A stretch of 64,000 nt of DNA from Squalus acanthias (Eukaryota), in assembly GCA_030390025.1 (NCBI GenBank), contig CM059432.1:23872001-23936000 (forward strand). Direction: 5' to 3'. The position numbers and the translations under genes were made by a program. Within the stretch, counting starts at the first letter, position 1, and the number at the start of each line of letters is the position of its first letter. The notes beneath the pieces are model-generated. The model was given only the letters and a program-made list of their open reading frames with translations, had not been told where the DNA came from and did no database searches. Positions 2,970 through 62,339 of this stretch are shown piece by piece.

Positions 2970-3737
2970 GGCCCAGAAATTAGACATCGATGGTTGCCGC
3001 GGGGGGTAAGGATCCCCCGCGATATCGCACTCCGCGCCTGCCTTTATGGTTCGGGCCCACACGAACTTCAGTTCCTGGGCCTCTCCCTGGTGCCGGCGCG
3101 CAGTGTGTGCGTGTCCTAGAGGCGCAGTTAGTTCAATGCGACCTCTGGGATCACGTGGGCCAGTTAGAGCCAATGGCAGCACACCATCTTTCATTCATAG
3201 TTTTGACAGCAAGAGCTGTCAAAACTATGAATACAACTTGCCCCCAAAAGAACAGCTAAACCTCAATTAATTTTTTTTTAAAAAACCATCACATTAATAA
3301 AATAACTATAGTTAAATAAATTAACCACTTTAAACAAAAATTTTAATTTTTGAAAAAATTTAAATTCTTTTTAAAAGTTATAAAAATAAACTTACCTTTT
3401 TTTAAAGTCTCTAAAAAAGATAAACCTGTTGAATTTTTTTAAAAATAATACTTAATTAACTACTTACCTTGTTAAAAGGGGATCTTACGCCTCCTTTTTT
3501 CAAGTGTAAAATTTTCCATACTTACCCTCGCGTTCAAACCTGAAAAAAAATCTAAGTTTGCTGCGTGCGCACAGCCTGTAGTGCGCACGCGGTTCACTTA
3601 GGAACCGCCCCCTTCGCAATATCGGAAGTGCCGGTTTCCCACGCATGCGCAGTGCATGCAGGAAACCGGCACTTCGGGACCGAATATGGGTGAGTACACA
3701 GTGCGTACTCTCCCGTATTCGGCTGAATTTCTGGGCC
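2970..3737. mobile_element. Non-autonomous Harbinger-like element (GGCC TIR family), copy 1
   Basis: Perfect TIR GGCCCAGAAATT/AATTTCTGGGCC; GC-rich arms, AT-rich centre; homologous to 17663-18317 and 35220-35983. Confidence 0.8.
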
Positions 3738-4973: not shown

Positions 4974-5829
4974 GGGCTGGATTTTACTTACCGAGATGAG
5001 TTGGGGGCGGGACTGCTGCCTTCTGGGTTCTAGTCCCGCCCCCAGCAACGTCTGACGAACAGACACTATTTTGCCCTGATTGGCCTTGTTAAGCCCGCCC
5101 TGCGGGCTTGCCGGCCAGTTAAGGGAAAGCCGGTGTCAGATGATGTCAGTTGATGACGCTTCATCTGCCAGTTTTCTTAAAGACATATGCACCACACTTG
5201 TTTGACAGATGAATTGTCAGTGTTTGACAGCATTGAGGTGCTGTCAAACACTGACAATCACTGTCCAAAGGTGAGCCCTTTCACCAAGGCTCTCCAATTA
5301 CTCTCTCCTTAGGATAAAACAGGTGGCAGCTGCAGCTGAGATTGCAAAAGCCATCTGTCACTTCTCCCGATGAGATGAAACTACACAAACACTTCACAGC
5401 TTGTCACATGCAGAAACATCTAACCACATGAAAAATTACTTTCACAACATTTCCTTACCTCCGATAATAACCAGTTTCCCATTGCATCCTTCAAACCACT
5501 TCTGCAGCTGTCATCCAAACACCAACATAACAGCAGACCCACAGCATGCCTCACTTACCCTGGCGGTGTTCCCTGACATTGGGAAGCCCGTAGCAGCAGT
5601 CGAAAAATTGGGAAAAGCCTCTTAACTGCCTGTTAACAAGCAGTTAAGTGGCTGTAATCCTCTTCCCGCTGCGAGGAGTCGGGTCCCTGCGCAAATCGGG
5701 GACCCGACTCCCGGGAAGATTGGTTGGAGGCGGGTTGGGAGCGGGTTCGGGACCCGCTCCCATTCTTTTTGACTTTCCCAGCAGTCCCGCCTCCAAACCC
5801 GCCTCCTCAGGGCTGGTAAAATCCAGCCC
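4974..5829. mobile_element. Harbinger MITE (GGGCTGGATTTT TIR)
   Basis: TIR GGGCTGGATTTTAC / GTAAAATCCAGCCC; TTA duplication at 4971-4973 and 5830-5832; same TIR start as the 36426-40634 element. Confidence 0.88.
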
Positions 5830-17662: not shown

Positions 17663-18317
17663 GGCCCAGAAATTCCGTTCGCAGCCCTCCCGCGGGCGGA
17701 GGGCTGTGATTTGGAAAAATCTCCGCCTGGACCGGAGGGCTCCCGGGAGGCACAGAATTCCGTTGCTGTGCCTCTTCAATCTGCCGGTGCGCAGTGCTCA
17801 CGTATCCCAGGGGTGCAGCTAGTTCGCAGCGTCCCCTGTGATCACGTGGGCCATGGGGAGCCAATCAGAGCAGGGAATCTCCATTCATAGATTTGACAGG
17901 AAGACCTGTCAAATCTCTGAATAGAAATCAGCCCCAAAACATAAGTAAAACTTCAAAGAATTTTTTTTTTTTAAACTTAACTTTCTTTAAAGTATTTTAA
18001 AATGATAAATCAGTGGAATTTTTTTTTTTTACTTTCTTAAACTATTAGCCTGCTAAAAGCAGGCCTTGCGCCCGCTTTTCTAGGCACAGCTGTTCCCGAC
18101 TTACCTGGACTCAAGCCAGTGTGGAAAAAACCGGAAGTTTCTAACGTACGCGCTGCCTATCCGGCGCAGGCGTTTGACCTGGGAAGCCCTTTCTGCAGAG
18201 AACGGAAGTGCCGGTTTCCAGCGCTTGCGCAGTGCAGGCGTAAAACCGGCACTTCCGTTGGCCCTACAGGTGAGTACACAGCGCGTAAACACCCGTAGGG
18301 AACGGAATTTCTAGGCC
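17663..18317. mobile_element. Non-autonomous Harbinger-like element (GGCC TIR family), copy 2
   Basis: TIR GGCCCAGAAATTCCGTTC / rc GGCCTAGAAATTCCGTTC; flanks AAT/GAT; colinear with 2970-3737. Confidence 0.82.
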
Positions 18318-27100: not shown

Positions 27101-28409
27101 AGTTTTTTTCTAAACTGAATTCAAATCAAAAGTAGTTCCTGTGTTAAATTTTCTATTTATGTCATGCACTGTTTTGGTGTTCACCAATTTGTGACACAAT
27201 CACACCTGTAGCTGCACACGTCTACCATGAGATGGAGTGCCAGAAGCTGCTGATCCCCACACTTGCACCCACACCATCACTAATACACTGATGGAAATTC
27301 ACTCGTACTGACTTTCTGTGGGCAAAATCATGGCAGATACACTCCTCAGTTTCTGTAAGTGATTTCTGGTTAAGGAAACCAAAGTCAAACAAGTTATACA
27401 AAATGATATATTTTTAATGAGAAGATTAGTCCTTCCAGCCACATCATCACCATCTCCTGTTTCATCCAGACAACCCCCAACTTTCTCATATAGTAAACTG
27501 ATACTGCTCCAGTTACTTTTCATCAGACTACCTGATATGGGCTATCTCAGTAACGATCTCCATAATATGTGGGACATGGTGCAGAATTGCATGACTGATC
27601 TCTCAGGTTTTATAAAATAATAAATCCATCTTTACATGGAAAGTATTTATTGCAAATGCACATCCATAACACTATAATAATTCCATAAATAACTTGAAAA
27701 CCTCCCCCGCCTTCCTTTCAGTTCTGTGTGCAAAGCGGCTTATTTGGAATTAAGACTAATCTCATATTTCCAAGCAGATGCGATGGGAGTTTAATGTTAA
27801 TCCACAAAAATAAACAGTCAATGAAAATGTTCAAAGATTAGATGAAAAGCACTTTAAGACAGTACCATTAATACGCCACCATCTGCCAGATCTCAGGCAC
27901 ATGAATCCTGTCCTACATGGAGTATTTAGGTTTTATTACTTTTTCTCGTCATCTTGTCCCCCATAGTTGGCTACCAGGCAGCATGAGAAACCACTTGCAT
28001 GTGACTCTTCCCCCTCCGATTTTCCCTTCACCCTACTTAGAAACACTGCAGCCCCGTTCAGTGCCCCTCTGTACGACATAGATCAGACTAGAAACTTACC
28101 AGCTGGGAGTCAAACTTCCATCTGACCCCGCTCTGTGGCATTGCTACACTCAGCACCACTACACTACCACCCACCAAAGACATTGTCCCCACTAAATCAC
28201 TGGTCATTACATCTCCACTTCCGTGCCAAAGGGACATCCAAATCCTAGTGGTGCTGATGGAACCACAACTCAAAGATGCTGGCTGATTGAAAGGAAAGGA
28301 AAGGAAATTCTTGGCAGAGGTCTGTGCCAGTAGTGTTTTTCCAGGGCCGGATTAGCTCTGCACTGGTCTGGTGGTCCCTATTAAAATGAATATAACCATT
28401 CGGTAATGC

Positions 28410-28530
28410 CCATGATGCGGAGATGCCGGTGTTGGACTGGGGTGGACAAAAGTGAGAAGTCGCACAACACCAGGTTATAGTCCAACAGTTTTATTTGAAA
28501 TCACAAGCTTTCGGAGCTGCTGCTCCTTCG
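28410..28530 (-). mobile_element. Severely 5'-truncated Penelope-like insertion (3' terminus only)
   Basis: Nearly identical to 57468-57587; 11-bp TSD TTCGGTAATGC (28399-28409, 28527-28537, partly overlapping the element). Confidence 0.88.
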
Positions 28531-28590
28531 GTAATGCAGCCAGTTCTGCCCTGTCTAATTGCAAGTGAATCTCCTGTAGTGTTCTGGCTA

Positions 28591-29744: not shown

Positions 29745-30175
29745 TAAATCATTCTCGGTGCGTGGCCGTTGCTGGCAGGGCCAGCATTCATTGCCCATCT
29801 CTAGTTGTTCTGAAAAGGAGGTGGTGGGCTTTGTTCTTGAACCGCTGATGGCAGTTTGATACAACTAAGTGGCTTGCTGGGCCATTTCAGAGGTCACTGA
29901 AGAGTCATCCATATTGGTGCGTGACTGGAGTCATATGTAGGGCAGACTGGGTAAGGACGGCAGGTTTCCTTCACTAAAGGATATTAGTGAACCAGTTGGG
30001 ATTCTACGACAATTCGACTGCTTCATGGTCACTTTTACTGATACCAGCGTTTTTATTTCCATATTTTTTTTCCTAAACTGAATTCAAATTCTTAAACTGC
30101 CAGGTTCTCAGGATTATTAGTCCAGGCCTCTGGATTACTACTCCAGTAACATAATCACTATGGCACCATACCCCA
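29745..30175 (-). mobile_element. tRNA-derived SINE (second family) with the tail of the 9926-10236 LINE
   Basis: tRNA-like head near 30175 on the minus strand; tail homologous to 10135-10230; related fragments at ~6300-6440, ~47540-47650, ~57390-57470 and ~58714-58870. Confidence 0.65.
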
Positions 30176-30525
30176 CTAGGTTAATCAAAGGATACAGGTA
30201 TTTTGGTTCCTGTGCTTATAAAATATATTCTATTTCTCCATACATTGCAAATTATTAGTTTTTGTCATACTTTTTTAGAAGAATGGAAGAGAAACAACAT
30301 TTTAATATAGACAGATGTGATGGCCAAAACACATGATGGATGCCCTGTATGAAACGTATATATTTTTACTGTTATCTGGCTCTCTTGACGTCACTGGACC
30401 ACACACTAATATGGCTGGAAAGGTAGGCAAGCAGTTTCCTCCAGTGCTGCTCTGTAGTGACCCCTAGAGGCCAGTTGATGAATCCTACTCATTTTACACT
30501 GCTAACCCAGTGGGGAAAACATTAA

Positions 30526-32256
30526 GGCCGGGATTTTGCTCACCTCGGCGGGTCCGGTGCGGCCGATGTCGGTGGTGGGTCGCGGCCCTGCTGCTGGCTC
30601 CAGCCTGCTGCCTAAAATGAACTGACGTTGATAGAGCTTGTTAAGCCCGCCCAGTGCATTTCCCAGTCCAATTAGAGGAAGCGGGTCAGGTGATGTCATT
30701 TCATGACGTGTCATCAACCGGTTTCCTTAAAGGGACCACGGCCAACTTTCTTTTGACATTTGTGCTGTCAGTGCTCTTCAGCATTGAGGTGCTGCAAACA
30801 CTGACAATCATTGCACAGAGGTGCAGGGCTACACCAAAGTTCTCCCATGACTCCCTCCATATGCTTATGGAGGGAGTCACACCATGCAGGCAGGTCCTCT
30901 TCCCTTCCAATGGGCAGAAGAGACCTCCCCAGGAGACCAACACAGCCTGGTTGCACATCGCAGAGGAGGTCACAAGCAGGGATGTCGTCAGGAGGACCTG
31001 GATGCAGTGCCACAAACCTTTCAATTATCTCATTAGATCACAAAACATTAGTACAAAGCTACACTCACCTTCATCCACGTGCACCTCTCATCACATCCCC
31101 ATCACTCTGCCTTCCCTACCCTACTCCTGCACATCCTTACTCACACCAACTTACCTTGCACCTGAACCCATCCCTCTCTATCTACATTATCACATCCCCA
31201 TCTTACTAACCACCCCTCACATCCACCCTCATCCTAATGCAACCACACCAACTAACAACACACAAGGGTAGCCACTTGGGTGTTTTATCCAATGTTCATG
31301 TGAAGTTTCTGTTAATGTGCTGTCAAACATTGAAATCTTTATTTTCAACACTTTGCGTTCTCGGACAGATTTGTGTGCATGTTTGGAAGTGGCTTAGTGA
31401 GTTGCAGTGAATGGTGAGACATAACGGTACCCCACTCAATGGTGATGAGTGTGAAAGAAATGGCTTGGACATTGTAGGGATGCTTTATGGTGTTGGTGTG
31501 GGGTGGTGCCAACCTGGCGCATCATGTGGCAGCCAGGGTGTACAGCATCAAGTGAAGTAAATCTGGCCATGGTGAGGCCATACCTGGGCTGCCGGGCAGC
31601 AATGTGCTCGCGTGCTGATGCCCTCTGTCCTGTGCAGCATCAGGTGATTGCGGAGAAGGTTGGTGTTGTTGTTGGTGCTGCTGGTGTGCCTGGTGCTGCT
31701 GGTGTTGGGGCTGATCGTGGTGGGATTCTGAGGATCAAGGTGAGAGAGTATAAAGGGCACCCATGTTGATGGAATAGATGACAGTTGAAGTACAGATGAC
31801 AGAAGCATTCTGTCAATGGTGAGATAGTTCTTCCAATGAGGTGAGAGTGGATGGAAAGTGGAAAGCCTGCAGAATCTGTGCTGGAAATTGAGTGAGAAAC
31901 AGCTTGTGGCTGAGGAAAGTGATGATCTGTCAGGTGGGAGCTTTTACTGTACATTTGAAGCTGTCAAGTAATCAGCTGATTCAGTAACCACTGAACTCCC
32001 GCCTCAGGTTGACAGACGTGGTCCCCGAACAGCGTGGTTCCCGTGGGCGAGCAGTTAAAGTGAAAAGGTAATGTTAAAAGCATTATTCAGGGTCTGTTAA
32101 TAACCCAATAATAGGTTTAATTAGGTCGCCCGCCTCTGCGGGTCAGATCGGAGATCACACACGCACCATCGGGAAAGGCGGGTTGACAGCAGGGAAATTT
32201 CCCACCCGACCCGCCACCGATCCCGCCCGCTGACCCCCCCGGAAAAGTCCCCCCCC
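30526..32256 (+). mobile_element. Harbinger internal-deletion derivative, copy 1 (keeps Myb exon 1 and both extremities of the transposase gene)
   Basis: TAA duplication (30523-30525, 32257-32259); Myb motif KFSHDSLHMLMEGV..WLHIAEEV..RRTWMQCHKPFN; minus strand has MGALY..Q-rich N-terminus joined to IAAR..MARFT. Confidence 0.88.
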
Positions 32257-36690: not shown

Positions 36691-38661
36691 ATGTCAAGCT
36701 CAAGGTCCAAGGCCACATCCCGCTTTGATGAGGACTCCCTCCAAGCTCTGGTGGAGGGAGCCAGAGCTCAGAAAGAGGTATCGTTTCCTTCCTCTGGGAG
36801 GAAAAAACCTGTGCTGTGTGGCTGCAAGTGGCACAGGAGGTCAGTGCCATATCAATGTGCAGTAGAACCTGGCTGCAGTGCAGAAAGAGGTTTAATGACC
36901 ACCTCCACACAGGAAAAGTGAGTATGACATCACCATGACCCTCAATCTGCTCCCCATCGCCTCTCATCACCAGCACTCTGCATTGTCAACCTCCTCCTCC
37001 ACATCCCACTTGACCCTTACATCCCTGCACCCTTAACCATTCCCTCTCTCTCTAGGTACACATTCACTTAACTATTCGACTATGCTGCCCTCACACTCCC
37101 TATCACTGTTTTGCTATGACAACAACTTACAACACACAGGGAGGGCCCTTGGTCCTGGGACCTCACTCCATCTTTGTGTCCATCTAAGCATCTATGCTAT
37201 GGATTCTTGACACTCACTCCATCATTCTCACTCAAACTCCACTTGTGTCCCTCATTGCAGGAAAAGAGAGTCCACAATAAGAGGGAAAGGGCAAAGACTG
37301 GAGGAGGGCCACCCTCAATAGCCCAGCTCACCAGCACAGAGGAGGCAGCCCTCAAGATCGTGGGAGTCGAGGAGGATGCACAAGTGGGGGACAGACAGAC
37401 GGGCGCATCAGAGCAAGTTGGTGACAGAATAGTTTTTCATCTCTCTCATTGACAATGCATGAGTGACTGATATTGATTCTGATGCTCTAACAGATTGACT
37501 TATGATGATCTGCACAATTCAATGTGCATGCAACGTTTATCTCACATGTCTAACTCTTTCCTTTACTCCCCCACAGGACCATTGACATTCCCCCTCCCAA
37601 CTGTCCAGGAGGAATAGCCTGAGCCACAAGACTCCTCAGAGGAAGCTGCAACCTCTGAGGGCGCAGCGTCAGCAGAATTAAGCAAACCCAGCACCAGCGC
37701 AGACACTCACAACTCGGTGGGACCTTCGCGAGATATAGTGTTGTCACCTGGTGTATCACAGCTCACAAGTGAGCATCAGCAGATGGTGGAGACAGGGACA
37801 GCAATGGAGAGTCCTCATTGGAGGCCGCAGGGCACTCCCAGATCGGCTCAGCTGCATGTCGACCCTGTGCCTCCGGGTCCATCCAGAAGGAAAGCGGTGA
37901 TGGAACTCCAGGAACAAGTGCAGGGGTCTCTGGCAGGTTTTATCTCCAGGGTCACTGCGAGTGTGGAGCGGATGGAGGACTCCATTGCTAACATGAGCAG
38001 AGCCTTTGTGGAGGCATTGGCGAATGAACGCATCACCACGGAAAGGATGGCAAACTCTGTGGAAAGGATGGCTACCTCCATGGTAAGGATGGCTACCATA
38101 GAGGAGAGGATGGCTACGGCCATGGAGGAGCTAAGTCGCCAGGGTCTTGAAAACATGGTCATTGTTCAGAATAGACTGACATCTCTGGAGGAGCGATGGT
38201 CAGCTATTGAACAGAGAAACCAGAGCTTCATGGAAGTCCTCTGGAGTAGGACTGCCAGTGCAGAAGCGGGTCCTCATGGCCCCCCTGAAGTGCAGCAAGG
38301 TGCTGTCAAGCCACTTGCTAGCTCTGAAGTGGGGCTGACCCATGAGAGGGATGTCGGTGGCAGACAACAAGGAAGTGGGGGCTCCTCTCCAAGCACTCAC
38401 ACGGCCATGCCACTGCAGTGCCTTCTGTCAAAGCCCCACCAGAGTCCTCACCCAACTGAGATCGGCGTCTCAGCCCCTGCACAGCCGCAGGAGCAGCAGA
38501 CTTTTGGCGAGCCCTCAGAGGCTCGCAACCCCAGAGGACGCCCGCCAAAGGTGTCAAGGCAGGAGCAGCATGAAAGTGAGCAAGGGGCCTCCACATCTGC
38601 TGAAGCCACAGGGGAAGCACCACGTAGGAGCACGAGTAAGAGGAAGATAAAGCACAAGTAG
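36691..38661 (+). pseudogene. Harbinger Myb/SANT-like DNA-binding partner gene; exons 36691-36917, 37261-37420, 37577-38661
   Basis: RFDEDSLQALVEG..WLQVAQEV..RTWLQCRKRFND | EKRVHNKRERAKTGGGPP motifs; GT-AG introns with matching phases (0, 1); frameshift near 36810 and in-frame TAG at 37615-37617. Confidence 0.85.
38041..38127 (+). repeat. 21-bp coding tandem repeat (heptads ERMANSV/ERMATSM/VRMATIE/ERMATAM)
   Basis: AGGATGGC recurs every 21 nt, in frame. Confidence 0.85.
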
Positions 38662-38901
38662 TCACAAGGGTAGTCACTTGGCTGTTCTGTTGTGTTTAAT
38701 TGTGAAATGCCATCTTGACTGAATGTTATAAAATGACTTGATGGCAAACTGTTGAAGTTGTGGGCTGTGTCATTTCGCAAATGGGACTTCTACATTGAGG
38801 GCTTCGGGCGACTTGGAATTGTCAGCATGGTGGTCAGAGTGATAGGAAGCCGTAGGTTCTTGTCCATTGTCGATGGTGTAGTAAGAAGGTGATTGGGCAG
38901 C

Positions 38902-40125
38902 CTAAGCAAATCTGGCCAAGATGAATGCATCCCGGGCAGCAATGTTCTCGCGTGCTGCTGCCACTGGTTGATGCGCCTCCGCAAGCTCTTCGTTCTCGCT
39001 CTCCTCCTCCTCCTCCTCATCCTCATCCTCATCCTCATCTGAGGAGGCTATTCGATGAGCCACTTGTACCTCAGGCAGCTGCAAGCCACAATGCTGTGCC
39101 ATGTTGTGAAGTGCACAGCAGACCACAATGATTCTGGAGACCCTGGCTGCTGAGTACTGCAGGGCTCCACCTGATCTATCAAGGCATCTGAATTGCATCT
39201 TCAGCAAGCCGATGGTTTGCTCGATAATGGATCTGGTGGAAATGTGGCTGGAGTTGTAGCACTCCTCAGCTTCGTTGGATGGCCTTCTCAACGGCGCCAT
39301 TAGCCACGTCTTCAGGGGATAGCCCTTGTCTCCAAGTAGCCATCCACAAAGCTGGTCTGGCGGACTGTAAAGCGGAGGCACACTAGACTGCCGCAGGATG
39401 AAGGAGTCATGGCAACTGCCAGGGTACTTGGCACAAACATGCAAAATTTCCTTCTTGTGGTTACACACCAGCTGCACGTTGAGGGAATGGAAGCCCTTGC
39501 GGTTGACAAAAATACCTGGATTGTGATGGGGTGCCTTAAGGGCCACATGTGTGCAGTCTACGATGCCCTGCACCCTTGGAAAGCCTGCCATATTAGCAAA
39601 TCCAACCGCACGCGCGGTTACACTTGCTTGATCCTTGGAGAAGTTGATGTAATTGTGCGCGTTGGCAAAGAGGGCATCAGTTACCTGCATGATGCAAGTG
39701 TGTGCGGCCGCCTGGGAGATGCCGCTGATGTGTGCTGTTGATCCCTGGAATGAGCCTAAAGCAAAAAAGTTGAGTGCGGTGGTGACTTTGACAGCTCTGG
39801 GCTCCAGGTCTTGCTGCAGCATTGCGCAGATGTCACCCACTACCTCTCGTGAAAGTCTGAGCCTCCTTTGGCACTGCTGCTCAGTCATGTTGAGGTAGTT
39901 CATCCTCTGTCTGTAAACCCTGTTTTGGGGGTATCTCCTGCGGCGACGTCCTTCCCTGCGCTGGCGCCTTCTGGCCTGTGCAGCTTCAGGTGGGTGAGCA
40001 GCAGGTTGGCGCTCCAGTTGTTGCTCCTGCTGTTGGTGCTGCTGTTGTTCCGGGTTCTACTGCTGCCGCGACTGGTCTTCGTCCGAATCTGAGGTCCAGG
40101 ATGAAAGGAAATAAATGGTTCCCAT
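38902..40125 (-). pseudogene. Harbinger DDE transposase (HARBI1-like, DDE_Tnp_4); open from 39903, upstream ATG at 40125 cut off by a TAG at 40059-40057
   Basis: Motifs [53 protein letters not shown]; acidic tail; Q-rich then R-rich N-terminus in the same frame. Confidence 0.92.
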
Positions 40126-47644: not shown

Positions 47645-49904
47645 ACTCCTCCATGGGGGTCAATTCATGCAGGTGCACCGGTACCCCTCCCAGTACCCCC
47701 TGCTGCCTCCGGTTATGCGCCACCTTGTCCGGCAAGAGAGAGGAAAGTGTGACAGTGAGTGTGGTGCAATGTGTTTGGGTGATGTTATAGTTGAATAGCT
47801 GACAGTATGTGCAAGCTGTGAGATGTGGGAGCAGTGGTAAGTGTGTGAGGGTGAGGTGAAGCTACGAATGTTAGGCATGAGTTCTGTTTGATAAAGATTG
47901 TTGGTAGGTGAGTGATGGGGGTGCGGTGCATTGAACAGTGTGTGAGGGTTGTGGTGCAGATGGTGGGATATGGCATTTGATGATGCATTCACTCACCTTG
48001 ACTACTCATGTGAGATCATTAAACGTTTTGCGGCACTGGATCCAAGTCCTGATCCAAGTCCTGGGGACAACACTCGTCGTAATCCTCTAATCCTCCTTAG
48101 ATACGGGGCTGGTGCCAGAGGACTGGAGAATCCGTGACAAAATTAACAGACACTTAGACAAGTGTGGATTAATTATGGAAAGCCAGCACGGATTTGTTAA
48201 AGGCAAATTATGTTTAACTAAATTGATTGAGTTTTTTGATGAGGCAACAGAGAGGGTTGATGAGGGCAATATGGTTGATGTGGTGTACATGGACTTCCAA
48301 AAGGCATTTGATAAAGTGCCACATAATAGGCTTGCCAGCAAAGTTGAAGCCCATGGAATAAAAGGGACAGTGGCAGCCTGGATACGAATTTGGCTAAGTG
48401 ACAGGAAACAGAGAGTAGTGGTGAACACTTGTTTTTCAGACTGGAGGAAGGTTTACAGTGGTGTTCCTCAGGGGTCGGTTCCAGGACCACTGCTTTTCTT
48501 GATATATATTAATGATTTGGACTTGGGTGTACAGGGCACAATATCAAAATTTGCAGATGACTCAAATCTTGGAAGTATAGTGAACAGTGAGGAGGATAGT
48601 GATAGACTTCAAGAGGACATAGACAGGCTGGCAGAATGGGCAGACATGTGGCAGATGAAATTTAACACAGAAAAGTGTGAAGTGATACATTTGGGTAGGA
48701 AGAATGAGGAGAGGCAATATAAACTAAAGGGTACAATTCTAAAGGGGGTGCGTGAACAGAGAGACCTGGGGGTATATGTGCACAAATTGTTGAAGGTGGC
48801 AGGGCAGGTTGAGAAAGCAGTTAAAAAAGCATAAGGGATCCTGGGCTTCATAAATAGAGGCATAGAGTACAAAAGCAAGGAAGTTATGATGAACCTTTAC
48901 AAAACACTGGTTCGGCCTCAACTAGAATATTGTGTCCAATTCTGGGCACCGCACTTTAGGAAGAATGTGAAGGCCTTAGAGAGGGTGCAGAAAAGATTTA
49001 CAAGAATGGTTCCAGGGATGAGGGACTTCAGTTACGTCGATAGACTGGAGAAGCTGGGGTTGTTCTTTTTAGAGCAGAGAAGGTTGAGAGGAGATTTGAT
49101 AGAGGTATTCAAAATCATGATGGGTCGAGACAGAGTAGATAAAGAGAAGCTGTTCCCAATGGCGGAAGGGTCAAGAACCAGAGGACACAGATTTAAGGTG
49201 ATTGGCAGATGAACCAAAGGCGACATGAGGAAAAACTTTTTTACGCAGTGAGTGGTTTGGGTCTGGAATGCACTGTCTGAAAGGATAGTGGAGGCAGATT
49301 CAATTGTGGCTTTCAAAAGGGAATTGGATAAGTACCTGAAGGAAAATAAATTGCAGGGCTACGGGGAAAGGGCGGCAGAGTGGGACTAGCTGAAGAGCTC
49401 TTGCAGAGCTGGCACGGGCTCGATGGGCTGAATGACCTCCTTCTGTGCTGTAACCATTCTATGATTCTACAATTCTATGATTCAGTGATGGCTTGAGTGA
49501 TCTCCTCCCACAGCCTTCTGGTGTTCAGTCTTAAAGGCCTCCTGCCCCGCTGTGGGTAGAAGACCTCACGGCATTTTGTACCACCAGGACCAAGGCCACC
49601 AGTGCCGCATCCGAAAACCTCCTTGCCCTTTCCCTTGGCTGATGGACCATGGCTCTTTTCACAATGACAATGAAGTGCTTCTGCAACAAAGCACCTCCCC
49701 TTTAACTAGTGCAGGGAGCCTAGGCCAAACTTTATTGGCCAGTAAACTGCACTCGATATTGGTGCCCCTGTTCAGCGCTGCAATCATTAGAATGAGAAGG
49801 CAGCACGAATTTTGCGTGCTGCCTGCACCACTTTGAACGGGCGCGGGAACATAGTGCTGTGCGATGCCGGCGCCCACTTTCGGGCCATTTCCAATTTCTA
49901 GGCC
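47645..49904 (-). mobile_element. Harbinger left-end remnant (TIR, Myb exon 1, intron, exon 2), split by a CR1
   Basis: TIR rc GGCCTAGAAATT ends at 49904; ATG 49650 MVHQPRERARRFSDAALVALV..LWEEITQAIT | CR1 | VVPRTWIQCRKTFNDL..gtgagt; exon 2 DKVAHNRRQQGVLGGVP. Confidence 0.8.
48079..49482 (+). mobile_element. 5'-truncated CR1 LINE (RT domain pseudogene)
   Basis: QHGF..DFQKAFDKVPH..GVPQGSV..FADD; stop at 48832-48834; internal deletion after VPEDWRI; (TTCTATGA)n tail. Confidence 0.93.
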
Positions 49905-50385: not shown

Positions 50386-51783
50386 GGTCAGAATTTTCCG
50401 GGGTGTCAGCGGGCAGGTTCGGTGGCGGGTCGGTAGGGAAAGAGCATTTCCACAACAGATTCTGCAGGCTGCAAGTCTTTCCACAAGTCTCCATCCAGTC
50501 TCACCTCATTACTTCTCTCACCATTGACAGATTGTTTCTGTCATCTCTACTTCACCTGCCATCTATTCCATCAGCATACTGTCTCACCTTGGACCTCAGA
50601 ATCGAACCACGATCAGCCCCAACACCAGTAGCACCAGGCACACCAGCAGCACCAACAACTACACCAACCTTCTCCGCAATCACCTGATGCTGCACAGGAC
50701 AGCGGCATCGGCACCCGACCACATTGCTGCCCGGGAGGCCAGGGATGGCCTCATCATGGCCAGATTTACTTCACGTTACACTGTACACCCTGGCTGCCAC
50801 ATGATGCGCCAGGTTGGCACCGCCCCACACCAACACCATAAAGTATCCCTGCAATGTCCAAGCCATTCCTTTCACACTCACCACCATTACGGAGGGTACC
50901 GTTATATCTCACCATTCACTACAACTCACTAAGCCATTTCCAAAGGTGCACACATCTGTCCAAGAACAGAAAGTGTTGAAAATAAAGGTTTCAATGTTTG
51001 ACACCACATTAATAGAAACTTTACATGAACATTGAATAAAACACTCAAGTGCCTACTCTTGTGTGTTGTTAGTTGGTATGATTGCACGAGAATGAGGGTG
51101 AGTGTGAGGGGTGGTTCGTGAGATGGGGAAGTGATAATGTAGATAGAGAGAGATGGCTGGAGGTGCAAGGTAAGTTGGTGTGAGTAAGGATGCGCTGGAG
51201 TAGGGTAGGGAAGGCAGAGTGATGGGGATGTGATGAGAGGCACATGAGGATGAGGTTGAGTGTAGCTTTGTACTAACGTTCTGTGATCTAATGAGCTCAT
51301 TGAAAGGTTTGCGGCACTGCACCCAGGTCCTCCTGACCACATCCCTGCTTGTGACCTCCTGTGCAATGTGCAACCAGGCTGTTTTGGTCTCCTGGGGAGG
51401 TGTCTTCCGCCCATGGGAAGGGAAGAGAACCTCCCTGCGTGCTGTGACTCCCTCCATAAGCATATGGAGGGAGTCATGGGAGAACCTGGGTGCAGCCCTC
51501 TGCCTCTGTGCAGTGATTGTCAGTGTTTGCAGCACTTCAATGCTGTAGAGCACTGACAGCACAAATGTCAAAAGAAAGTTGGCCATGGTCCCTTTAAGAA
51601 ATCGGCTGATGACACGTCATGAATGACGTCACCAGACCCACTTCCTCTAATTGGCCCGGGAAATGTGCTGGGCAGGATTAACAAGCCCTATCAACGTAAA
51701 TTCATTTTAGACAGCAGGATGGGCTGCGACCCGTCACTGACATCGCCCATTCCGGACCGGCCGAGGTGAGCAATATCCCGGCC
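50386..51783 (-). mobile_element. Harbinger internal-deletion derivative, copy 2
   Basis: Reverse-complement homologue of 30526-32256 with an extra ~0.3 kb deletion; TCA duplication (50383-50385, 51784-51786). Confidence 0.88.
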
Positions 51784-53049
51784 TCAGAGAGGCAGGGGTG
51801 CTTAAAAGTGGGAGATATGCTGCCAACGCCCCCTTTAAGCTGCGCGGCAGCGTGGCTGCGCAGTAATGGGAAAGGTCCCCCTCAGGCCGCTCATTGGCTT
51901 TTCCATTGTAAATACCGCGTATGCGCAGAAATTTAAAGGGACCGCGCATTAAAAGAAACAGGCCACGCAGAACAATGTGCAGCTCACAGGGAACATTGTA
52001 TGCTGCCCTTTGCTCCAGCGCAATGTGGGGAAGGACTGAATTTTACCAGTGTCTCAGGAAAAATTGCACTGAAAATGAAATGTCTCTTGAATGTGAAATG
52101 TGCAAGTCTTCACCCAGAAGTCATTGGTTTCCCATCACACATCCAGTAAGTAGCTCCCTGGTGAGGTTCAGAAGATATAAAGCTCCAGTACATGTCTAAA
52201 TTCGCTCATTACACCATTCCGTTTGACACTTCCGAATAACAGAATAATTAATGAGTTCATTATAATTAATTTCTTACAATATTTTTTTTTGTCAGCTGCA
52301 ATTGCTCAACACCTCATTTACGATATCATTAGCGACTAGAGCTGAGAGTTACCCCCAGTGACCTGTGGTCTCCCTTGAGGACAGAAACGGGTCTGAGACT
52401 TAATAATCTTGTAATAGCTGCCATCGCAACTAATGCAATTATGGAAATTGTTTTTGCCTTATCAGTTGGAGGTAGTGCACTGTTTTAATACACAATTTCA
52501 CTTTGTTTTAAACTAATTCAAAAGGAAATCTACACAACTTGCTCTTCTGTTATAATTAGCCTGTACAGCTGACTACACATAAAGACATAATAGATCCAAG
52601 CAGAGAACTGTAATATATCAAATCACTTCCCACTCATTGCCTGCATTAGAATTCTTACTGAGAAGTGTTGGATAAAACATGCTTCCTTTTAATAAAATAT
52701 CGAAGTGCTCGTGAATTAAAAGTCCTACATGTGTTTCGCTGGTGACTCAGTTGGTAAATGTTCTGAGCCAGGGAAATTGCAAGTTTAATCCCTTATTAAC
52801 TGAGCTTAGCTCGCGCTAACACACAATGCCTGGGCTAGGAAGGTGAACAAAACTAGCCAGGGGTTCCTGTCCCAGTCACTGTCCGGCGATTCCTCTCGAA
52901 GAGTGTGTGTATATCAGAAAGGGCAGCTGGCACCTGTGGACCTGTAGCCCAGCATAAGTCAGCAACTAAAGGGAAGGCAGGGAAGAAAATGGGGGCTAAT
53001 GCAGCCTCAAAAACCTTTTGCTCAGTCATCACAGGGCCAGCTGGTCGAG

Positions 53050-53409: not shown

Positions 53410-54972
53410 ATAAGAACATAAGAAATAGGAGCAGGAATAGACCACTTGGCCCCTCAAGCCTCCTCCGCCATTCATAAGATCATGGCTGATCTTGGGGCTC
53501 AAAGCCACTTCCCTGCCCACTCCCCATAACACTTCACTCCCTTATTTTTGCAAAAATCTGTCTATCTCCGCCTTAAATGTATTTAATAACCCAGCCTCCA
53601 CAGCTCTCTGGGGCAGGGAATTCCATAGATTTACGACTCTCTGAGAGAAGAAATTCCTCCTCATCTCAGTTCTAAAAGGGCGACCCTTTATTCTGAAACT
53701 ATGCCCCGAGTTCTAGATTTCCCCACGAGGGGAAACATCCTCTCTACATCTACCTTTTCGACCCCCCTCAGTATCTTATATGTTTCAATAAGATCACCTC
53801 TCATTCTACTAAATTCCAATAAGTATAGGCCCAACCTGCTCAACCTTTCTTCATCTCAGGAATCAACCGTGTGAATCGTCTCTGAACTGCCTCCAATGCA
53901 AGTATATCCTTCCTTAAATAAGGAGACCAAAACTGTACGCAGTACTCAAGGTGTGGTCTCATCAATACCCTGTACAGTTGTAGCAGGACTTCCCTACTTT
54001 TATACTCCAACCCCCTTGTAATAAAGGCCAACATTCCATTTGCCTTTTTGATTACTTGCTGTACCTGCATGCTAACATTTTGTGTTTCATGCACAAGGAC
54101 CCCCAAGTCCCTCTGAACTGTAGCATTTTGTAATCTCTCCCCATTTAAATAATAATTTGCTTTTTTATTTTTCCTGCCAAAGTGTATAACCTCGCACTTT
54201 CCCACGTTATACTCCATCTGCCAAATGTTTGCCCACTCACTTAGCCTGTCTACATCCCTTTGCAGGTTCTTTGAGTCCTCTGCACAACTTGCTTTCCCAC
54301 CCATCTTTGTATCATCCGCAAACTTGGCTACATTACACTCGGTCCCTTCATCCAAGTCATTAATGTAGATTGTAAATAGTTGAGGCCCCAGCACCGATCC
54401 CTGTGGCACCCCACTAGTTACCGTTTGCCAATCAGAAAATGACCCATTTGTCCCGACTCTCTGCTTTCTGTTAGTTAGCCAATACTCTATCCATGCTAAT
54501 ATATTACCCCCAACTCCGTGAGCTCTTATCTTATGCAGTAACCTTTTATGTGGCACCTTCTCAAATGCCTTCTGGAAATCCAAATACACAACATCCACTG
54601 GCTCACCCTTATCCACCCTGCTCGTTACATCCTCAAAGAACTCCAGCAAATTTGTTAAACATGATTTCCCTTTCATAAAACCATGCTGACTCTGCTTGAC
54701 TGCATTATGATTTTCCAAATGCCCTGCTACTGCTTCCTTAATGAAGGGCTCCAGCATTTTCTCAACAACAGATGTTAGGCTAACTGGTCTATAGTTTCCT
54801 GCTTTCTGTCTCCCTCCTTTCTTAAATAGGGGCGTTACATTTGTGGTTTTCCAATCCGCTGGGACCTCTCCAGAGTCCAGGGAATGTTGGTATATTGCAA
54901 CCAATCCATCCACTATCTCTGCAGCCACTTCTTTTAAGACCCTGGGATGCAGGCCATCTGGTCCAGGGGACT
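53410..54972 (-). mobile_element. 5'-truncated CR1 LINE with a 362-codon open RT segment (53840-54928)
   Basis: NYRPVSLTS, QHGF, DFQKAF, GVPQGSVLGP, FADD motifs; small deletion near 53840; CR1 tail at 53410. Confidence 0.95.
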
Positions 54973-56580: not shown

Positions 56581-57558
56581 CTCTGCCCTGTTTGTGTAGC
56601 TAAAGTACTGACATGGCTGGTTCAGTTAAGTTTCTCTACTGGGTCATGAGGTTACAATGCTGCTGCTGCTACTGGGCCACAGAACCTCATGGATGCCCAG
56701 TTTTGGGCTGCTAGATCTGTTCTTAGTCTCGGTAGTAGTGCCACATTGCAGGATAGAGAATGCCCTCACTGTGGAGACAAGAGTTTGTCTTCTCAAGGAT
56801 TATGCAGCACTCAATCCTTCAAATGCTATCCTGAACAGACGTAGGTTGATAAGGGAAAGATTTGAACATAAGAAATCGGAGCAGAAGTAGGTCATTCAGC
56901 CCCTCGAGCCTGTCCGCCATTCAATAAGATCATGGCTGATCATCGACCTCAACTCCACTTTCCCGCCTGATCTCCATATCCCTTGATTCCCCTAGATGGT
57001 GATCAGCAGCAAGTTTTCTTGGCCTTATTTGACCTGAAGCTGCGAGACTTCAAGGGGCCCTGAGACAATGTTGAGGGCCACTCCCACTTGACTGTATATT
57101 ACTGTGCCAATGGGATAGGACAGACCAAGGGATACTGATGGAGGGGTCTGGGATGTTGGATGATAGATATGAATTTGTGAGTAGGACTATGTCCACGCTG
57201 TTGCTTGACTAGTCTGAAGAACAGTTTTCCCAATTTTGGGACCAACACCCAGATATTAGTGAGGAGGACTTTTCAAAGTCCCCTTGGTTGAAATTGCCTA
57301 CCTCTTGTTCTAATATGATGCCTGGGCCATTGCTGGTTGGTCCATCTGATTTTATCCCTTATGCTCCCTTATATGCAATTGCTTAAAACTGCGTGGCTTG
57401 CTTGATCATTTCAGAGGGCTTTAACAGTTAACTACAGCATGCGGGATAGAATTATGTATAGATTAGACCATGATGCGGAGATGCCGGTGTTGGACTGGGG
57501 TGGACAAAAGTGAGAAGTCGCACAACACCAGGTTATAGTCCAACAGCTTTATTTGAAA

Positions 57559-57595
57559 TCACAAGCTTTCGGAGCGCTGCTCCTTCGTCAGGTGA
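57559..57595 (-). ncRNA. Minimal type I hammerhead ribozyme (left arm)
   Basis: Exact reverse complement of 58614-58650. Confidence 0.7.
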
Positions 57596-58613
57596 AGTGA
57601 AGAAATACATATGGGCACAGCATAAATAGTCAGAGAACAATGCCAGACGACTACAGTTAATCTTTCTAACTGCCCTTTATCACACCTCGGCAGAGAGACA
57701 ATCACAGCAATCAAAGGTGTGGATGGTGTCCAACCAGGTCAGTCAGGAAGACATTACATCAAAGACAATAGCAAAATACAACAAAGACAATGAGGTGGGG
57801 TCACAAGGGGTCAAATGTGGCAGCTGCTGGAGTCTGTATGGAAAACAAAAAGATTTTTTACTTTTTTTGCTGGAAATTACAGCAGGCCGCATCTGTGTAG
57901 AGAGAACAAGCCAGCGACGACTCGAGTCTGGATGACTCTACGTCAGGTGGGGTTACATGTAGCGTGAAATGAACCCAAGATCCCGGTTGAGGCCGTCCTC
58001 ATGGGTGCGGAACTTGGCTATCAGTTTCTGCTCGATGATTTTGCGTTGTCGTGTGTCTCGAAGGCCGCCTTGGAGAACGCTTACCCGAAGATCGGAGGCT
58101 TCCGATTCAGCCTCTGATCTTCGGGTAAGCGTTCTCCAAGGCGGCCTTCGAGACACACGACAACGCAAAATCATCGAGCAGAAACTGATAGCCAAGTTCC
58201 GCACCCATGAGGACGGCCTCAACCGGGATCTTGGGTTCATGTCACGCTGCATGTAACCCCACCTGACGTAGAGTCATCCAGACTCGAGTCGTCGCTGGCT
58301 TGTTCTCTCTACACAGATGCGGCCTGCTGTAATTTCCAGCAAAAAAAGTAAAAAATCTTTTTGTTTTCCATACAGACTCCAGCAGCTGCCACATTTGACC
58401 CCTTGTGACCCCACCTCATTGTCTTTGTTGTATTTTGCTATCGTCTTTGATGTAATGTCTTCCTGACTGACCTGGTTGGACACTATCCACACCTTTGATT
58501 GCTGTGATTGTCTCTCTGCCGAGGTGTGATAAAGGGCAGTTAGAAAGATTAACTGTAGTCGTCTGGCATTGTTCTCTGACTATATATGCTGTGCCCATAT
58601 GTATTTCTTCACT

Positions 58614-58650
58614 TCACCTGACGAAGGAGCAGCGCTCCGAAAGCTTGTGA
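58614..58650 (+). ncRNA. Minimal type I hammerhead ribozyme (right arm)
   Basis: TCAC-CTGACGA-A-GGAGC(AGC)GCTCC-GAAA-GC-TT-GTGA: stem I TCAC/GTGA, core, stem II, palindromic AGCT stem III. Confidence 0.7.
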
Positions 58651-59157
58651 TTTCAAATAAAGCTGTTGGACTATAACCTGGTGTTGTGCGACTTCTCACT
58701 TTAGATTAGACCAGTTAGACAAGGTAGGTTCCCTTCCCTAAAGGCAAAACTGAGCCAGTTGGGTTATTCTTCTAATGCTCGTGCACAGTTTCATAGCTTA
58801 CAGCAGTGAGAATTGAACTCACACTTCTAGGTTGCTAGTCCAGTACCATAACCACTTGGCAGCCATACCTATAGCCGGAGATCCTATTTTATGGCTTATG
58901 ATGACAGTTAAAATGGTGTTATAAGCCTTCTAACAGACTGTAAATCCATTGAATTACCACTTCTTGGCATTGTGTATAGCAGCTCAGTGCCACTAAACCA
59001 CTCCGCCTCCATTTTTTTTGCAATTTCACCTACGAAAAACCAGAAATTAATGTCAATGATGTCAAGATAGTTCAGATACCTTCTGTACATTATATAACTA
59101 TGGATATAAAACAGTGAACCAATGTAATGGCCTTGAAATAACGCTATACCAATATTA

Positions 59158-60001
59158 AAGCAAAATACTGCCGATGCTGGAAATCTGAAATAAAAACAGA
59201 AAAATGCTGGAAATACTCAGCAGATCAGGCAGCATCTCTGGAGAGAGAAACAGAGTTAGCATTTCAGATTGATGACCTTTCAACAGAACTAGAAAAGGTT
59301 AGAGATGTAACAGGTTTTAAGCAAGTACAGAGGCAGGGAAAGTGGGGAGGGGAGGAAAGAACAAAAGGGAAGGTCTGTGATAGGATGGAAGACAGGAGAG
59401 ATTAAATGACAAAAGGGATGACGGTGCAAGGCAAAAGGAGATGGCAATGGAACAAATAAAGAAACAAACAATGGGTCTAGAGGAGCTGTAAATGGGAATA
59501 TCAGAATCAGCAGCAGCAGCTGCGGTCCTGGGGCAGATTATATGATCTGAAATTGTTGAATTCAATGTTAAGTCTGGAAGGCCCGAAAGTGCCTAATAGA
59601 AAGAGGAGGTGCTGTTCCTCGAGCTTCCCTTGAGCTTCATTGGTATAGTGTAGGAGGCCAGAGAGCTCAGAATGGGAGTGTTCTGGAGAATTAAAATGGC
59701 AGTCTACCGAAGCTTGGGTCATGCTTGTGGACTGAACGGAGGTGTTCCGCAAAGCATTCATCCAATCTGTTGTTTGGTCTCCCCAATGTAGAAGAGAACG
59801 CATCGTGAGCAGTGAATGCAGTATACTAAATTGGCAAGGAGTACAAGTAAACCGTTGTTTCAGCTGGAAGGAATGTTTGGGGCCCTGGACGGTGGGACAG
59901 AAGGAGGTAAAAGGGCAGGTGCTGTGGGAAGGGGAGTGGGCATTGGGGGTGATAGAGGAGTGGACCAGGGTGTCGTGGAGGAAGTGGTCCCTTCGGAACA
60001 A
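59158..60001 (-). mobile_element. Older Penelope-like element 3' part (GIY-YIG endonuclease remnant plus 3' end with decayed hammerhead)
   Basis: FRRDHFLHDTLVHS..QRFTCT..HFNS..KLEEQHLLFLLGT..LNIEF with frameshifts; rc CTGTTGAAAGGTCATCAATCTGAAATG near 59260-59287. Confidence 0.82.
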
Positions 60002-62339
60002 ATATTAGTGTGCGAACACGTAACGCAATGATATTCAATTGCTTTGTCTGCTATTTCAATAGAGGCATTAAATGGAGTTACATTTCTGTTTAAGTGTAAA
60101 GGAATTGCTTACCAATACATTAACTGTTCTTTCACTAATATTTACACAATGTAATTTCAAGACGAATGTTTTTATATAAATTAATCAGTATCTTTTATGA
60201 GAAATCTTCATCACTGTTTAGTACCTTTCTATCTAGTGTCTAATAATATGCTAATACACATGTGGAAGCAGAGGAAACATCCTGTTAGACACAATGAAAC
60301 TGCTGACATTTTCCCTGTGATCACATTGTACAAACAATGTAACAGATGGGCACTGATGTGCATATCCAGGGGGACTAGAAAATGCAAAGCAACAGAAGAG
60401 TCGTACACTCACAGTGTAAAAATAAGTATACGCAGATAAGTGTCTTACAATAAGTGTTAACTTGACTATTCTTTCCCCTCAACAATAGCAATTCATTCAC
60501 TAGATTTGGCAATATATTCTCCGATAAAATGTCACGTAAATAAAATTCATTGTAACAATTGCCCTACTCAATTCACTCACTGTTTCGAAGCACTGGATTA
60601 CTGAATTGTCACCAGAAGGTGGTGCTGTGAGCTTGCAGTACAGAGCTGGCACTAACTATTGTTAACCAATAAACAACAACCATACACTCACTGGCATCCA
60701 TCATAATGAGGGGTTATTGTTGGGTCATCGGAGGTCCTCAGCACTTGACAATGACAAATACATTTCCTGTTGTTACCTTGCAGATTATTTGTAATACACA
60801 ATTTGCCATAAAAGCTTTCGCCCAAGTACTCACTGGAAACAAATTCTCAATTAGATCTTTAATCAACAAAATCTATTTACCAGGAAATATATGTAGGGAT
60901 GATTTAGTAAGATTTAACTTCCATTGTAACAGATTAAAACAAAAAGCAGCTTAACCTTGTAGTAAATGATCAGCAATAAATCTCACAAATTATTCATCTG
61001 CTCCAAGGCTTTAGTATTTCGTGTCTTTATCCCACCAACTTTCCTGCCTTCCTGTCCTGATAGTGCTGGTTGAGACAAGTTACCCTCCAGTGGCCTTTAT
61101 CCACACGTCCTGAGGTCGTGGAAGGCGCTATATAAATGCAAGTCTTCCTTTCTATGTGAGCCTAGATGTAGAAAGTGGCAGGTTGTTTGGCGATTCAAAA
61201 GAAATCACAGTCGAGATTGATTCTGCCTTCGTCAAAGAGAAAAAAATTCCGGCCAGCGGGAAAGCATCTGGTGGTGCAAAGTGGCCAAGTGGGATTCGGG
61301 ATGCTTACAAAGTGTCTGGGTCCCTGCTCGAGTAAAGCATTGTCAGAAACCACATGTCTGGTTATTTGTCAGTAATCTTTGCTCTTGCACAGAATATGCG
61401 AGAGCCTCATAAGATCTTTGAAAATTGTGCAAATAAATGGCAAATTGGCTAACCTTCTGCCTTGGATGCAAGGAATTTCTTAAGTCTCGACTGTAATGAA
61501 AGGACTATGGGAATGCGCTTATTTGGTGTCATATTTCGATATGTATTCCTCTTTTGTTTTCATAGGTTTTCAAGAATAGAGCCATGGGTTCCAAGCAAGC
61601 CAGCACCTTTGCCACCCTCACTACTTTTGCAAAGCACCAGCACAGCCACACACACCTCAGAAGGTGTAGACAGTGAGCATGAGGAGGTCGTACTGGGTGG
61701 GAGGAGTAAGTGGTGGCAGTAACTGAGGAGAAGGCACCTGCTGTTTGGAGGACCAGCAGTCCATGCCTTTCCTGCAGAAGCTAGAAACTCTGACCTCAAA
61801 GGGCTTATAAAATGAGATTGCTGTCCAATTAGGAGTATCTACACAAATGAGCAGCTCGTGCAGCAGTCTCCCTGGGAACAGTGATGTTACTGTAGCTACA
61901 TCCTTATGGTCAGTGTCTGTCTGCAGTTTGAGCATTTTTTTCCAGATTGGCCTTCTCCTCCTCCATGGTTAAAGCCCTTTATAGAACAAAGTCATAGAGC
62001 ATACAGCAGACAATAATGATCCTGCAAACCTTGGAGGTTCTGTCCATGGCAGCCACAAGAGTGTCATGTGCCAGGACTGAAAATGGTAGAATTGGTGTAG
62101 CAGGAGCAATCCTGCCAATCTCTCTTTGCCTTCAAATGAGTGTGGCACAGATGATTGGCACAAAATGGAAGCATAGTGGCAGCTTTCTGGGAAACAGGCA
62201 TTGACCTGCATGATACGATGCTGGTGCTCAAAGAACTGCTACACATAGAACATCTTTCTGTTCATGTAGGCTGTTACATTATGGATAGTGGCCCAGATAG
62301 GTCACAGGAGTGTCGTCAATCACCTCTGTACTGGTGAGG

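Follow-up and report, generated by a model that had tools for sequence, protein, structure and literature searches.

A 1.2-kb head-to-head Penelope-like insertion: its anatomy and a possible origin by two-ended target priming

Penelope-like elements (PLEs) are the closest retroelement relatives of telomerase. In a 64-kb window (the whole stretch of 64,000 nucleotides analyzed here), a PLE insertion forms a nearly perfect 1.2-kb palindrome, which raises the question of how two mirror-image copies of the same part of an element could be laid down at one target site. A preliminary description of the locus had answered with a simple snap-back of the cDNA. The value of the locus is that of a clean fossil of the insertion reaction, with its center and its outer ends legible base by base; as a single locus it matters little, being a most likely dead copy whose form is the one shown as typical in reviews.

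Anatomy, family and age of the insertion

Direct comparison of the two arms (57507-58100, with the sense strand minus, and 58109-58702, with the sense strand plus) gave 594 bp each, aligned without a gap and 98.99% identical, with six mismatches at 58094/58115, 57968/58241, 57960/58249, 57767/58442, 57725/58484 and 57625/58584. The preliminary description had arrived at the same arm length, no indels and about six substitutions; the 607 nt returned by the repeat finder resulted from its extension into the mismatched flank. Between the arms lies the 8-nt spacer TCCGATTC (58101-58108), recognized before as such, though its last four nucleotides are native right-arm sequence and not a neutral loop. 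Both arms are 5'-truncated and stand head to head, each with the end of the open reading frame (ORF), the 3' region and the terminal repeat. The right arm holds the last 49 codons and the stop of the RT-GIY-YIG ORF (58107-58256, plus strand), with Cys where nine of ten aligned sequences have Tyr, and the mirrored frame of the left arm occupies 57953-58100 (minus strand); the content of each arm had been foreseen as about 50 codons of the GIY-YIG ORF plus the 3' region. An inverted-repeat scan found four close inverted repeats with a score of at least 16 in the 64-kb window, of which the fold-back is the sole long one, the other three having arms of 17-20 bp.

Both arms are bracketed by the 12-mer TAGATTAGACCA, found exactly twice in the window (57459-57470 and 58702-58713, plus strand) and read, now as before, as a target site duplication (TSD). 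The chance of such an exact 12-mer match is about 1e-5 with 11x11 junction offsets allowed, or about 3e-3 when the match is limited to the eight bases that cannot be element sequence. The four bases dropped in the second estimate are shared with the element: T58702 is common to the right arm and the TSD, and the last three bases of the left copy (CCA, 57468-57470) are also the element's own terminus, as judged from a sibling copy at 28410 that begins with CCA. Since this CCA doubles as element terminus, the extra piece carried by the left arm only (57471-57506, minus strand; previously put at about 36 nt) is a tail of 36-39 nt. As a single TSD encloses both arms, the earlier view that the whole unit arrived in one event holds. 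The sibling (28410-28530, minus strand; 98% identical over 118 nt) is a simple 5'-truncated insertion of about 120 bp with a tail and without an inverted partner; it is flanked by an 11-bp TSD (28399-28409 and 28527-28537) and has 4 nt of microhomology at its head.

Contigs of four of 24 listed sequencing runs were compared over 56800-58132, which takes in the left side of the insertion and its center. Fifteen of 69 joints were listed, and in seven of the 15 a flanking-repeat copy abuts an end of the element, at 57468-69 in two of them and at 57503-57511 in five. Because the listed joints, which come from other loci and whose positions family variants at 57509-57512 make less sharp, cluster at these two places, the family uses both outer ends seen here, and the tail would be the interval between its two RT start sites. 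Strand-switch joints in other family copies, at 57507-57598 and 57548-57596, indicate that short inverted forms exist elsewhere. The element family is very abundant; contig depth over the arm exceeded that over the flank by orders of magnitude, a ratio that is not a copy number. Family sequence is also present in run X16 (presumed to be an RNA run), which says nothing of the fold-back locus.

By its protein similarity, the insertion is built from an endonuclease-bearing Penelope-like element (EN+ PLE), of which it holds two 5'-truncated ends, in concordance with the Penelope identity proposed before. Among 38 candidates, 25 matched the 49-codon piece; the best named match, P0002, is labelled Heptranchias perlo and is 94% identical at its C-terminus, and further matches are labelled other sharks. 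The left-arm ORF remnant compared with residues 596-643 of P0002 gave 94% as well (tblastn). The 49-codon remnant had no Pfam match of its own above the cut-off; an RVT_1 domain (E 5e-9) is present in P0002 and a GIY-YIG domain (PF01541, E 2e-5) in P0005, a relative aligned with it, and it is on these two domains that we assign the family to the endonuclease-bearing PLEs. A CX2-5CxxC linker zinc finger (C-x4-C-x2-C) was found in all seven aligned relatives spanning the RT-endonuclease linker, a region that lies outside the arms. As PMC8557442 describes Neptune and Nematis with this motif and Penelope/Poseidon as lacking it, we provisionally call the family Neptune-type, by a linker motif that Nematis shares. 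A Poseidon label (Penelope/Poseidon clade) was dropped because of the zinc finger in the relatives.

The terminal repeat of each arm contains a predicted hammerhead motif: our own pattern scan found a minimal type I core with stem II (57567-57591, minus strand, and 58618-58642, plus strand), together with a stem III seed that is palindromic. In the distant loci L001 and L002 the core is kept along with both stems, with 22 of 22 cells paired and one compensatory change, a pairing that is not significant, with three sequences only and 166 of 500 shuffles equally high. An Rfam search gave no hammerhead match at E up to 1. The loci used for this comparison came from a protein-alignment search, which found two among 120 candidate stretches in metagenomes and one among 51 in prokaryote genomes, all three being distant PLE fragments without a long inverted repeat; the 25-nt terminal-repeat pattern found no stretch in metagenome contigs and none in viral contigs. 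In L002 (523 to about 1010), a short PLE 3' end with the hammerhead motif sits inside an AT-rich, microbial-looking marine metagenome contig, as a chimera or a real insertion. L003 (1-1304) is a PLE ORF filed under a bacterial symbiont assembly and is probably host DNA.

Within the 3' region, a decayed stretch (58303-58396, plus strand), with its mirror image in the left arm, is similar to the 3' end of a different element at 59160-60004, with a local alignment score of 55 that none of 2000 shuffles reached (maximum 36). This likeness suggests that the arm family once captured the 3' end of that element's family. The element at 59160-60004 (minus strand) is a second, older one, with a frame that tentatively resembles a PLE GIY-YIG end and a possible 7-bp TSD; against A1, hhalign gave this frame a probability of only 6%. 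The family's GIY-YIG C-terminus also occurs inside the shark gene models P0003, P0015, P0017 and P0025 (XRCC5 X2, PPP1R12A-like X3, FAM210B X1 and FAM204A X2), and three of the four enter it at nearly the same point (R-K-G-C-P), which lies outside the present arms. These entries hint at a possible recurrent cryptic splice acceptor.

Other repeats lie on both sides of the insertion. A tRNA-like match (58798-58867, minus strand; Rfam RF00005, 33.5 bits) stands 85 bp to its right, with similar stretches near 29959-30172, and is probably the head of a tRNA-derived SINE. LINE reverse-transcriptase remnants (RVT_1), which we take to be CR1-like, are found at 48091-49209 (plus strand) and 53840-54970 (minus strand), and short copies of related LINE 3' ends are scattered, including one at 56864-56994 to the left of the insertion. 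A DDE_Tnp_4 transposase frame (38902-40056; Pfam, E 4e-37) lies within 37618-40056, and the segments 30525-31888 and 50446-51784 are 87% identical in opposite orientation, one of them with a Myb/SANT domain; these three elements are presumably Harbinger-type. The small perfect hairpins at 3193-3232 and 5213-5258 (18- and 20-bp arms) share TTTGACAGC beside the loop, and a third small hairpin lies at 18201-18259.

Both arms carry G at 57852/58357, where A makes up 94-96% of the summed contig depth in two organism-A DNA runs, and the possession of this minority base by both indicates that the arms share a source. At 57706/58503 both have A, the minority state in organism A and the majority state in organism B, a related species. 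Derived states are found on either arm: on the left at 57968 and 57625, where the right arm has the family state, and on the right at 58249 (the change of Tyr to Cys). As to an empty allele, which the preliminary description had suggested looking for, an organism-B contig matches 56942-57470 with 16 differences in 530 nt, followed by 142 unlike letters. If these letters are the right flank, the contig ends 58 nt inside the SINE-like repeat, its start being 55 nt inside the left repeat. Since the flank match stops exactly at the end of the left TSD copy and the length of 142 letters fits the right flank, this contig is probably the empty site, the left side judged by sequence and the right side by length only. 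Divergence between the arms amounts to 1.0% (6/594; 95% interval 0.37-2.2%) versus 3.0% between the flank and organism B, and an arm drift of a third of the flank distance fits an insertion after the split from organism B. With a mutation rate of 7e-10 per generation, which PMC10587355 gives with a tenfold interval, the arms would be about 7 million generations old (2.6-15.7), a loose figure that gene conversion would bias and of which we use the relative order alone.

Center of the palindrome and its possible origin

The bases at 58101-58106 are the reverse complement of 58091-58096 and form with them a small fold-back with a 4-nt loop (DNA fold -5.2 kcal/mol). Loose contig ends running past 58100 start with GAATGTCC in all four runs (28, 32, 38 and 6 records). 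As the last four spacer bases, ATTC (58105-58108, plus strand), are the reverse complement of this continuation, they are native to the right arm, where they end a His codon and start a Ser codon, in agreement with the family protein, which reads GHSASDLRV near the turn point. The four bases before them (58101-58104) are a non-native insert, and the templated and the native sequence overlap by AT (58105-58106), a microhomology of 2 nt. The join is thus ordered as the left head, four templated bases, the 2-nt microhomology and a right head that reaches 4 nt deeper into the element. In a post-hoc test, about 1e-5 of random 8-nt spacers would agree with the templated prefix and with the native suffix at once.

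With the tail only on the left and the native ATTC only on the right, neither arm is a full copy of the other. A simple snap-back product would have one arm wholly templated by the other and a native loop, which is not what the locus has; its center is shaped like an end-join with a templated insertion, and on this point the preliminary description is not supported. The center has the form of the snap-back class of SD-MMEJ, in which fold-back priming is followed by microhomology annealing (PMC5728401), and RT slippage could write the same letters. These eight bases add a clue to how mirror copies form, the inverted shape itself being already described for the class.

Of the possible origins, we lean, by a modest degree, toward one in which each cut end of the target primed a cDNA, each using a different one of the family's two start sites, and end joining then connected the heads of the two cDNAs. 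The GIY-YIG endonuclease would have cut both strands 12 nt apart, a distance taken from the TSD. The top-strand end would have primed at the outer start site, where 3 nt of pairing is possible, giving the left arm with its tail, and the bottom-strand end at the inner site 36-39 nt upstream, where 1 nt of pairing is possible, giving the tail-less right arm. With no more than 4 nt between the end points of the heads, some coupling is required: the two cDNAs may have run to a shared broken 5' end of one RNA or, alternatively, one cDNA may have folded back with its returning strand annealing to the other. A short fold-back extension (the four templated nucleotides) and the 2-nt microhomology would then have sealed the heads by synthesis-dependent end joining. 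The order of these steps, the single RNA template and the joining enzymes we infer.

Two-ended priming is favored by the unequal ends of the arms, by the make-up of the center and by the listed joints at the two ends of the family, which match both outer ends of the fold-back. According to PMC11167929, a PLE protein from Anolis cleaves and extends both target strands in vitro, and it begins reverse transcription at two sites on the RNA, the tail being the stretch between them; the protein is a predicted dimer. The RT starts of that Poseidon element were not homologous to the cut DNA (PMC11167929), so the priming matches of 1-3 nt at the present locus may be chance. Further points weigh against two-ended priming. 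With a single junction at hand, a join that dates from the insertion looks no different from one left when the center of a once-perfect hairpin was remodelled later; independent truncations would rarely stop within 4 nt, so that an extra assumption of coupling is required; and the fold-back primer would be very weak, with either a single G-T wobble or a single untemplated base.

If true, two-ended priming would account in a single step for the inverted copy as well as for the tail on one side, and the many shark fold-backs would be a large natural record against which to test a stage of the PLE cycle left unvalidated in PMC11167929. The same signature across many young copies would settle how PLEs finish integration. 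That Penelope-type inverted insertions generally arise by two-ended target-primed reverse transcription of the 3' part of one RNA, closed by templated microhomology end joining, we put forward tentatively, as a proposal whose chances fall a little short of even. A literature search, with most subscription papers outside its scope, found no two-ended priming model for PLE inverted insertions, and the available part of a 2026 retrozyme preprint holds nothing on inverted insertions.

The alternative that survives best, unlikely though we find it, supposes one priming and a true snap-back beyond 58104, with the second strand ending at the tail boundary because the endonuclease cut or halted it there, and the perfect center later nicked and rejoined asymmetrically, which made the 8-nt spacer and stabilized the locus. 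The equal heads of the arms and their shared alleles would be directly accounted for, the tail is ascribed to endonuclease resolution of an intermediate in PMC8557442, and perfect palindromes are known to be cut at the center and stabilized by a 9-nt spacer (PMC1851657; E. coli and in vitro). However, two separate events are required, and PMC11167929 puts both ends of the tail at RT start sites, not at a cut. The present GC-rich center is moreover a poor cruciform substrate, though the original center may have differed.

Self-priming on antisense RNA, put forward in PMC3846280 as the source of head-to-head junctions with palindromes in rotifer Penelope elements, would also give the head-to-head form, and a small palindrome does sit at the turn. 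We regard it as quite improbable here: the turn lies 49 codons inside the ORF, where the native continuation is GAATGTCC, which means that the element had no palindrome of its own there to serve as the small hairpin, and the TSD, the tail and the 5' truncation fit a sense template. An assembly or read artefact, or two unrelated insertions abutting by chance, is extremely improbable: although none of the contigs listed from the four runs spans the center or the filled-allele junction of left flank and tail (of run X1, about 55% entered the comparison, its missing cover at 57429-57440 and 58105-58132 carrying no weight as evidence) and the palindrome therefore rests on the assembly and on internal consistency, the arms differ at six sites with derived states on both, the mirror ends at the family's inner terminus and gives way to unique flank with the TSD, and one TSD encloses both arms.

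Stability and possible function of the locus

The preliminary description had also proposed a cruciform or fragile site. According to PMC1851657, a 600-bp palindrome no longer extruded once it had a 9-nt spacer and four mismatches near the center, and extrusion required an AT-rich center. Measured against that work, the 8-nt spacer, the 60% GC of the central 20 nt and the mismatch 7 bp off center make a cruciform unlikely. The locus has neither the central symmetry nor the AT-rich center of PATRR-like fragile palindromes, and its arms have both drifted, being 1.0% apart without any indel; the proposal is weakened accordingly.

The locus might instead be a functional source of hairpin RNA (endo-siRNA or an ADAR substrate) that restrains its family, a role compatible with any origin and one that we judge improbable. 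Read-through RNA would pair at 591 of 594 positions, with perfect runs of up to 192 bp (computed), and siRNAs were mapped precisely to inverted Penelope regions in transgenic Drosophila (PMC3681739), but these siRNAs did not silence Penelope efficiently (PMC3681739, PMC3136932). Since the sense strands of both arms point outward from the center, a hairpin RNA would arise only if transcription entered from a flank or began at an antisense promoter. Nor was a host-gene Pfam domain found in any of the 116 of 116 open frames of at least 60 aa at 40-64 kb, where the matches (two RTs and one Myb/SANT domain) are all of mobile-element type; at 1-40 kb, the scan took in one of 213 frames only. The hairpin siRNA idea is established for the Penelope class and hypothetical for the fold-back locus. 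Rfam miRNA matches at the center were rejected as being below gathering scores and reflecting any long hairpin. The locus has drifted and is most likely dead and without effect, and a 594-bp hairpin would form only on read-through from one of its flanks. A regulatory role, if it were true, would be of greater consequence.

Comparison with known inverted insertions

The typical EN+ PLE insertion, as presented in PMC8557442 and PMC3846280, combines an inverted truncated copy, a one-sided tail of 30-40 nt and a short TSD, in line with the earlier remark that inverted forms are typical of the Penelope class. A tail of 30-40 nt is given in PMC8557442 and PMC11167929, and the inverted insertion form is mentioned in PMC8969392. 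The present locus has the same features: 5' truncation with an inverted partner, a tail of 36-39 nt at one end and a short TSD (12 bp, and 11 bp in the sibling).

At the center, the closest likeness is to SD-MMEJ snap-back, where fold-back synthesis also creates microhomology and leaves an inverted templated insert (PMC5728401); that class was defined at nuclease breaks in Drosophila plasmids, whereas here it is read from one junction. At the outer ends, the likeness is to PAc, a Poseidon element of Anolis carolinensis, with two termini a tail length apart and a hammerhead in the repeat (PMC11167929). PAc cuts and extends both strands, the activity that two-ended priming needs, but it belongs to a different clade by the linker motif, and the available text of PMC11167929 does not derive inverted insertions from two-ended priming.

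Complex insertions of EN+ PLEs such as Pen2a_Av (PMC3846280) resemble the fold-back in the head-to-head partner, the tail at one end and the hammerhead in the terminal repeat. Their TSDs are 8-10 bp long, versus 12 bp here, and the inverted part is there usually a terminal repeat before a longer direct copy (PMC8557442, PMC3846280). In contrast, both arms of the fold-back are equally truncated inside the ORF, which leaves a pure 1.2-kb palindrome. Two-ended priming itself has a counterpart in the twin priming of LINE-1, in which both target ends prime cDNA and microhomology joins the products. The parts of the one RNA that LINE-1 twin priming inverts do not overlap, whereas in the present case the same 3' part would have been copied from both ends, and the outcome is an inverted duplication.
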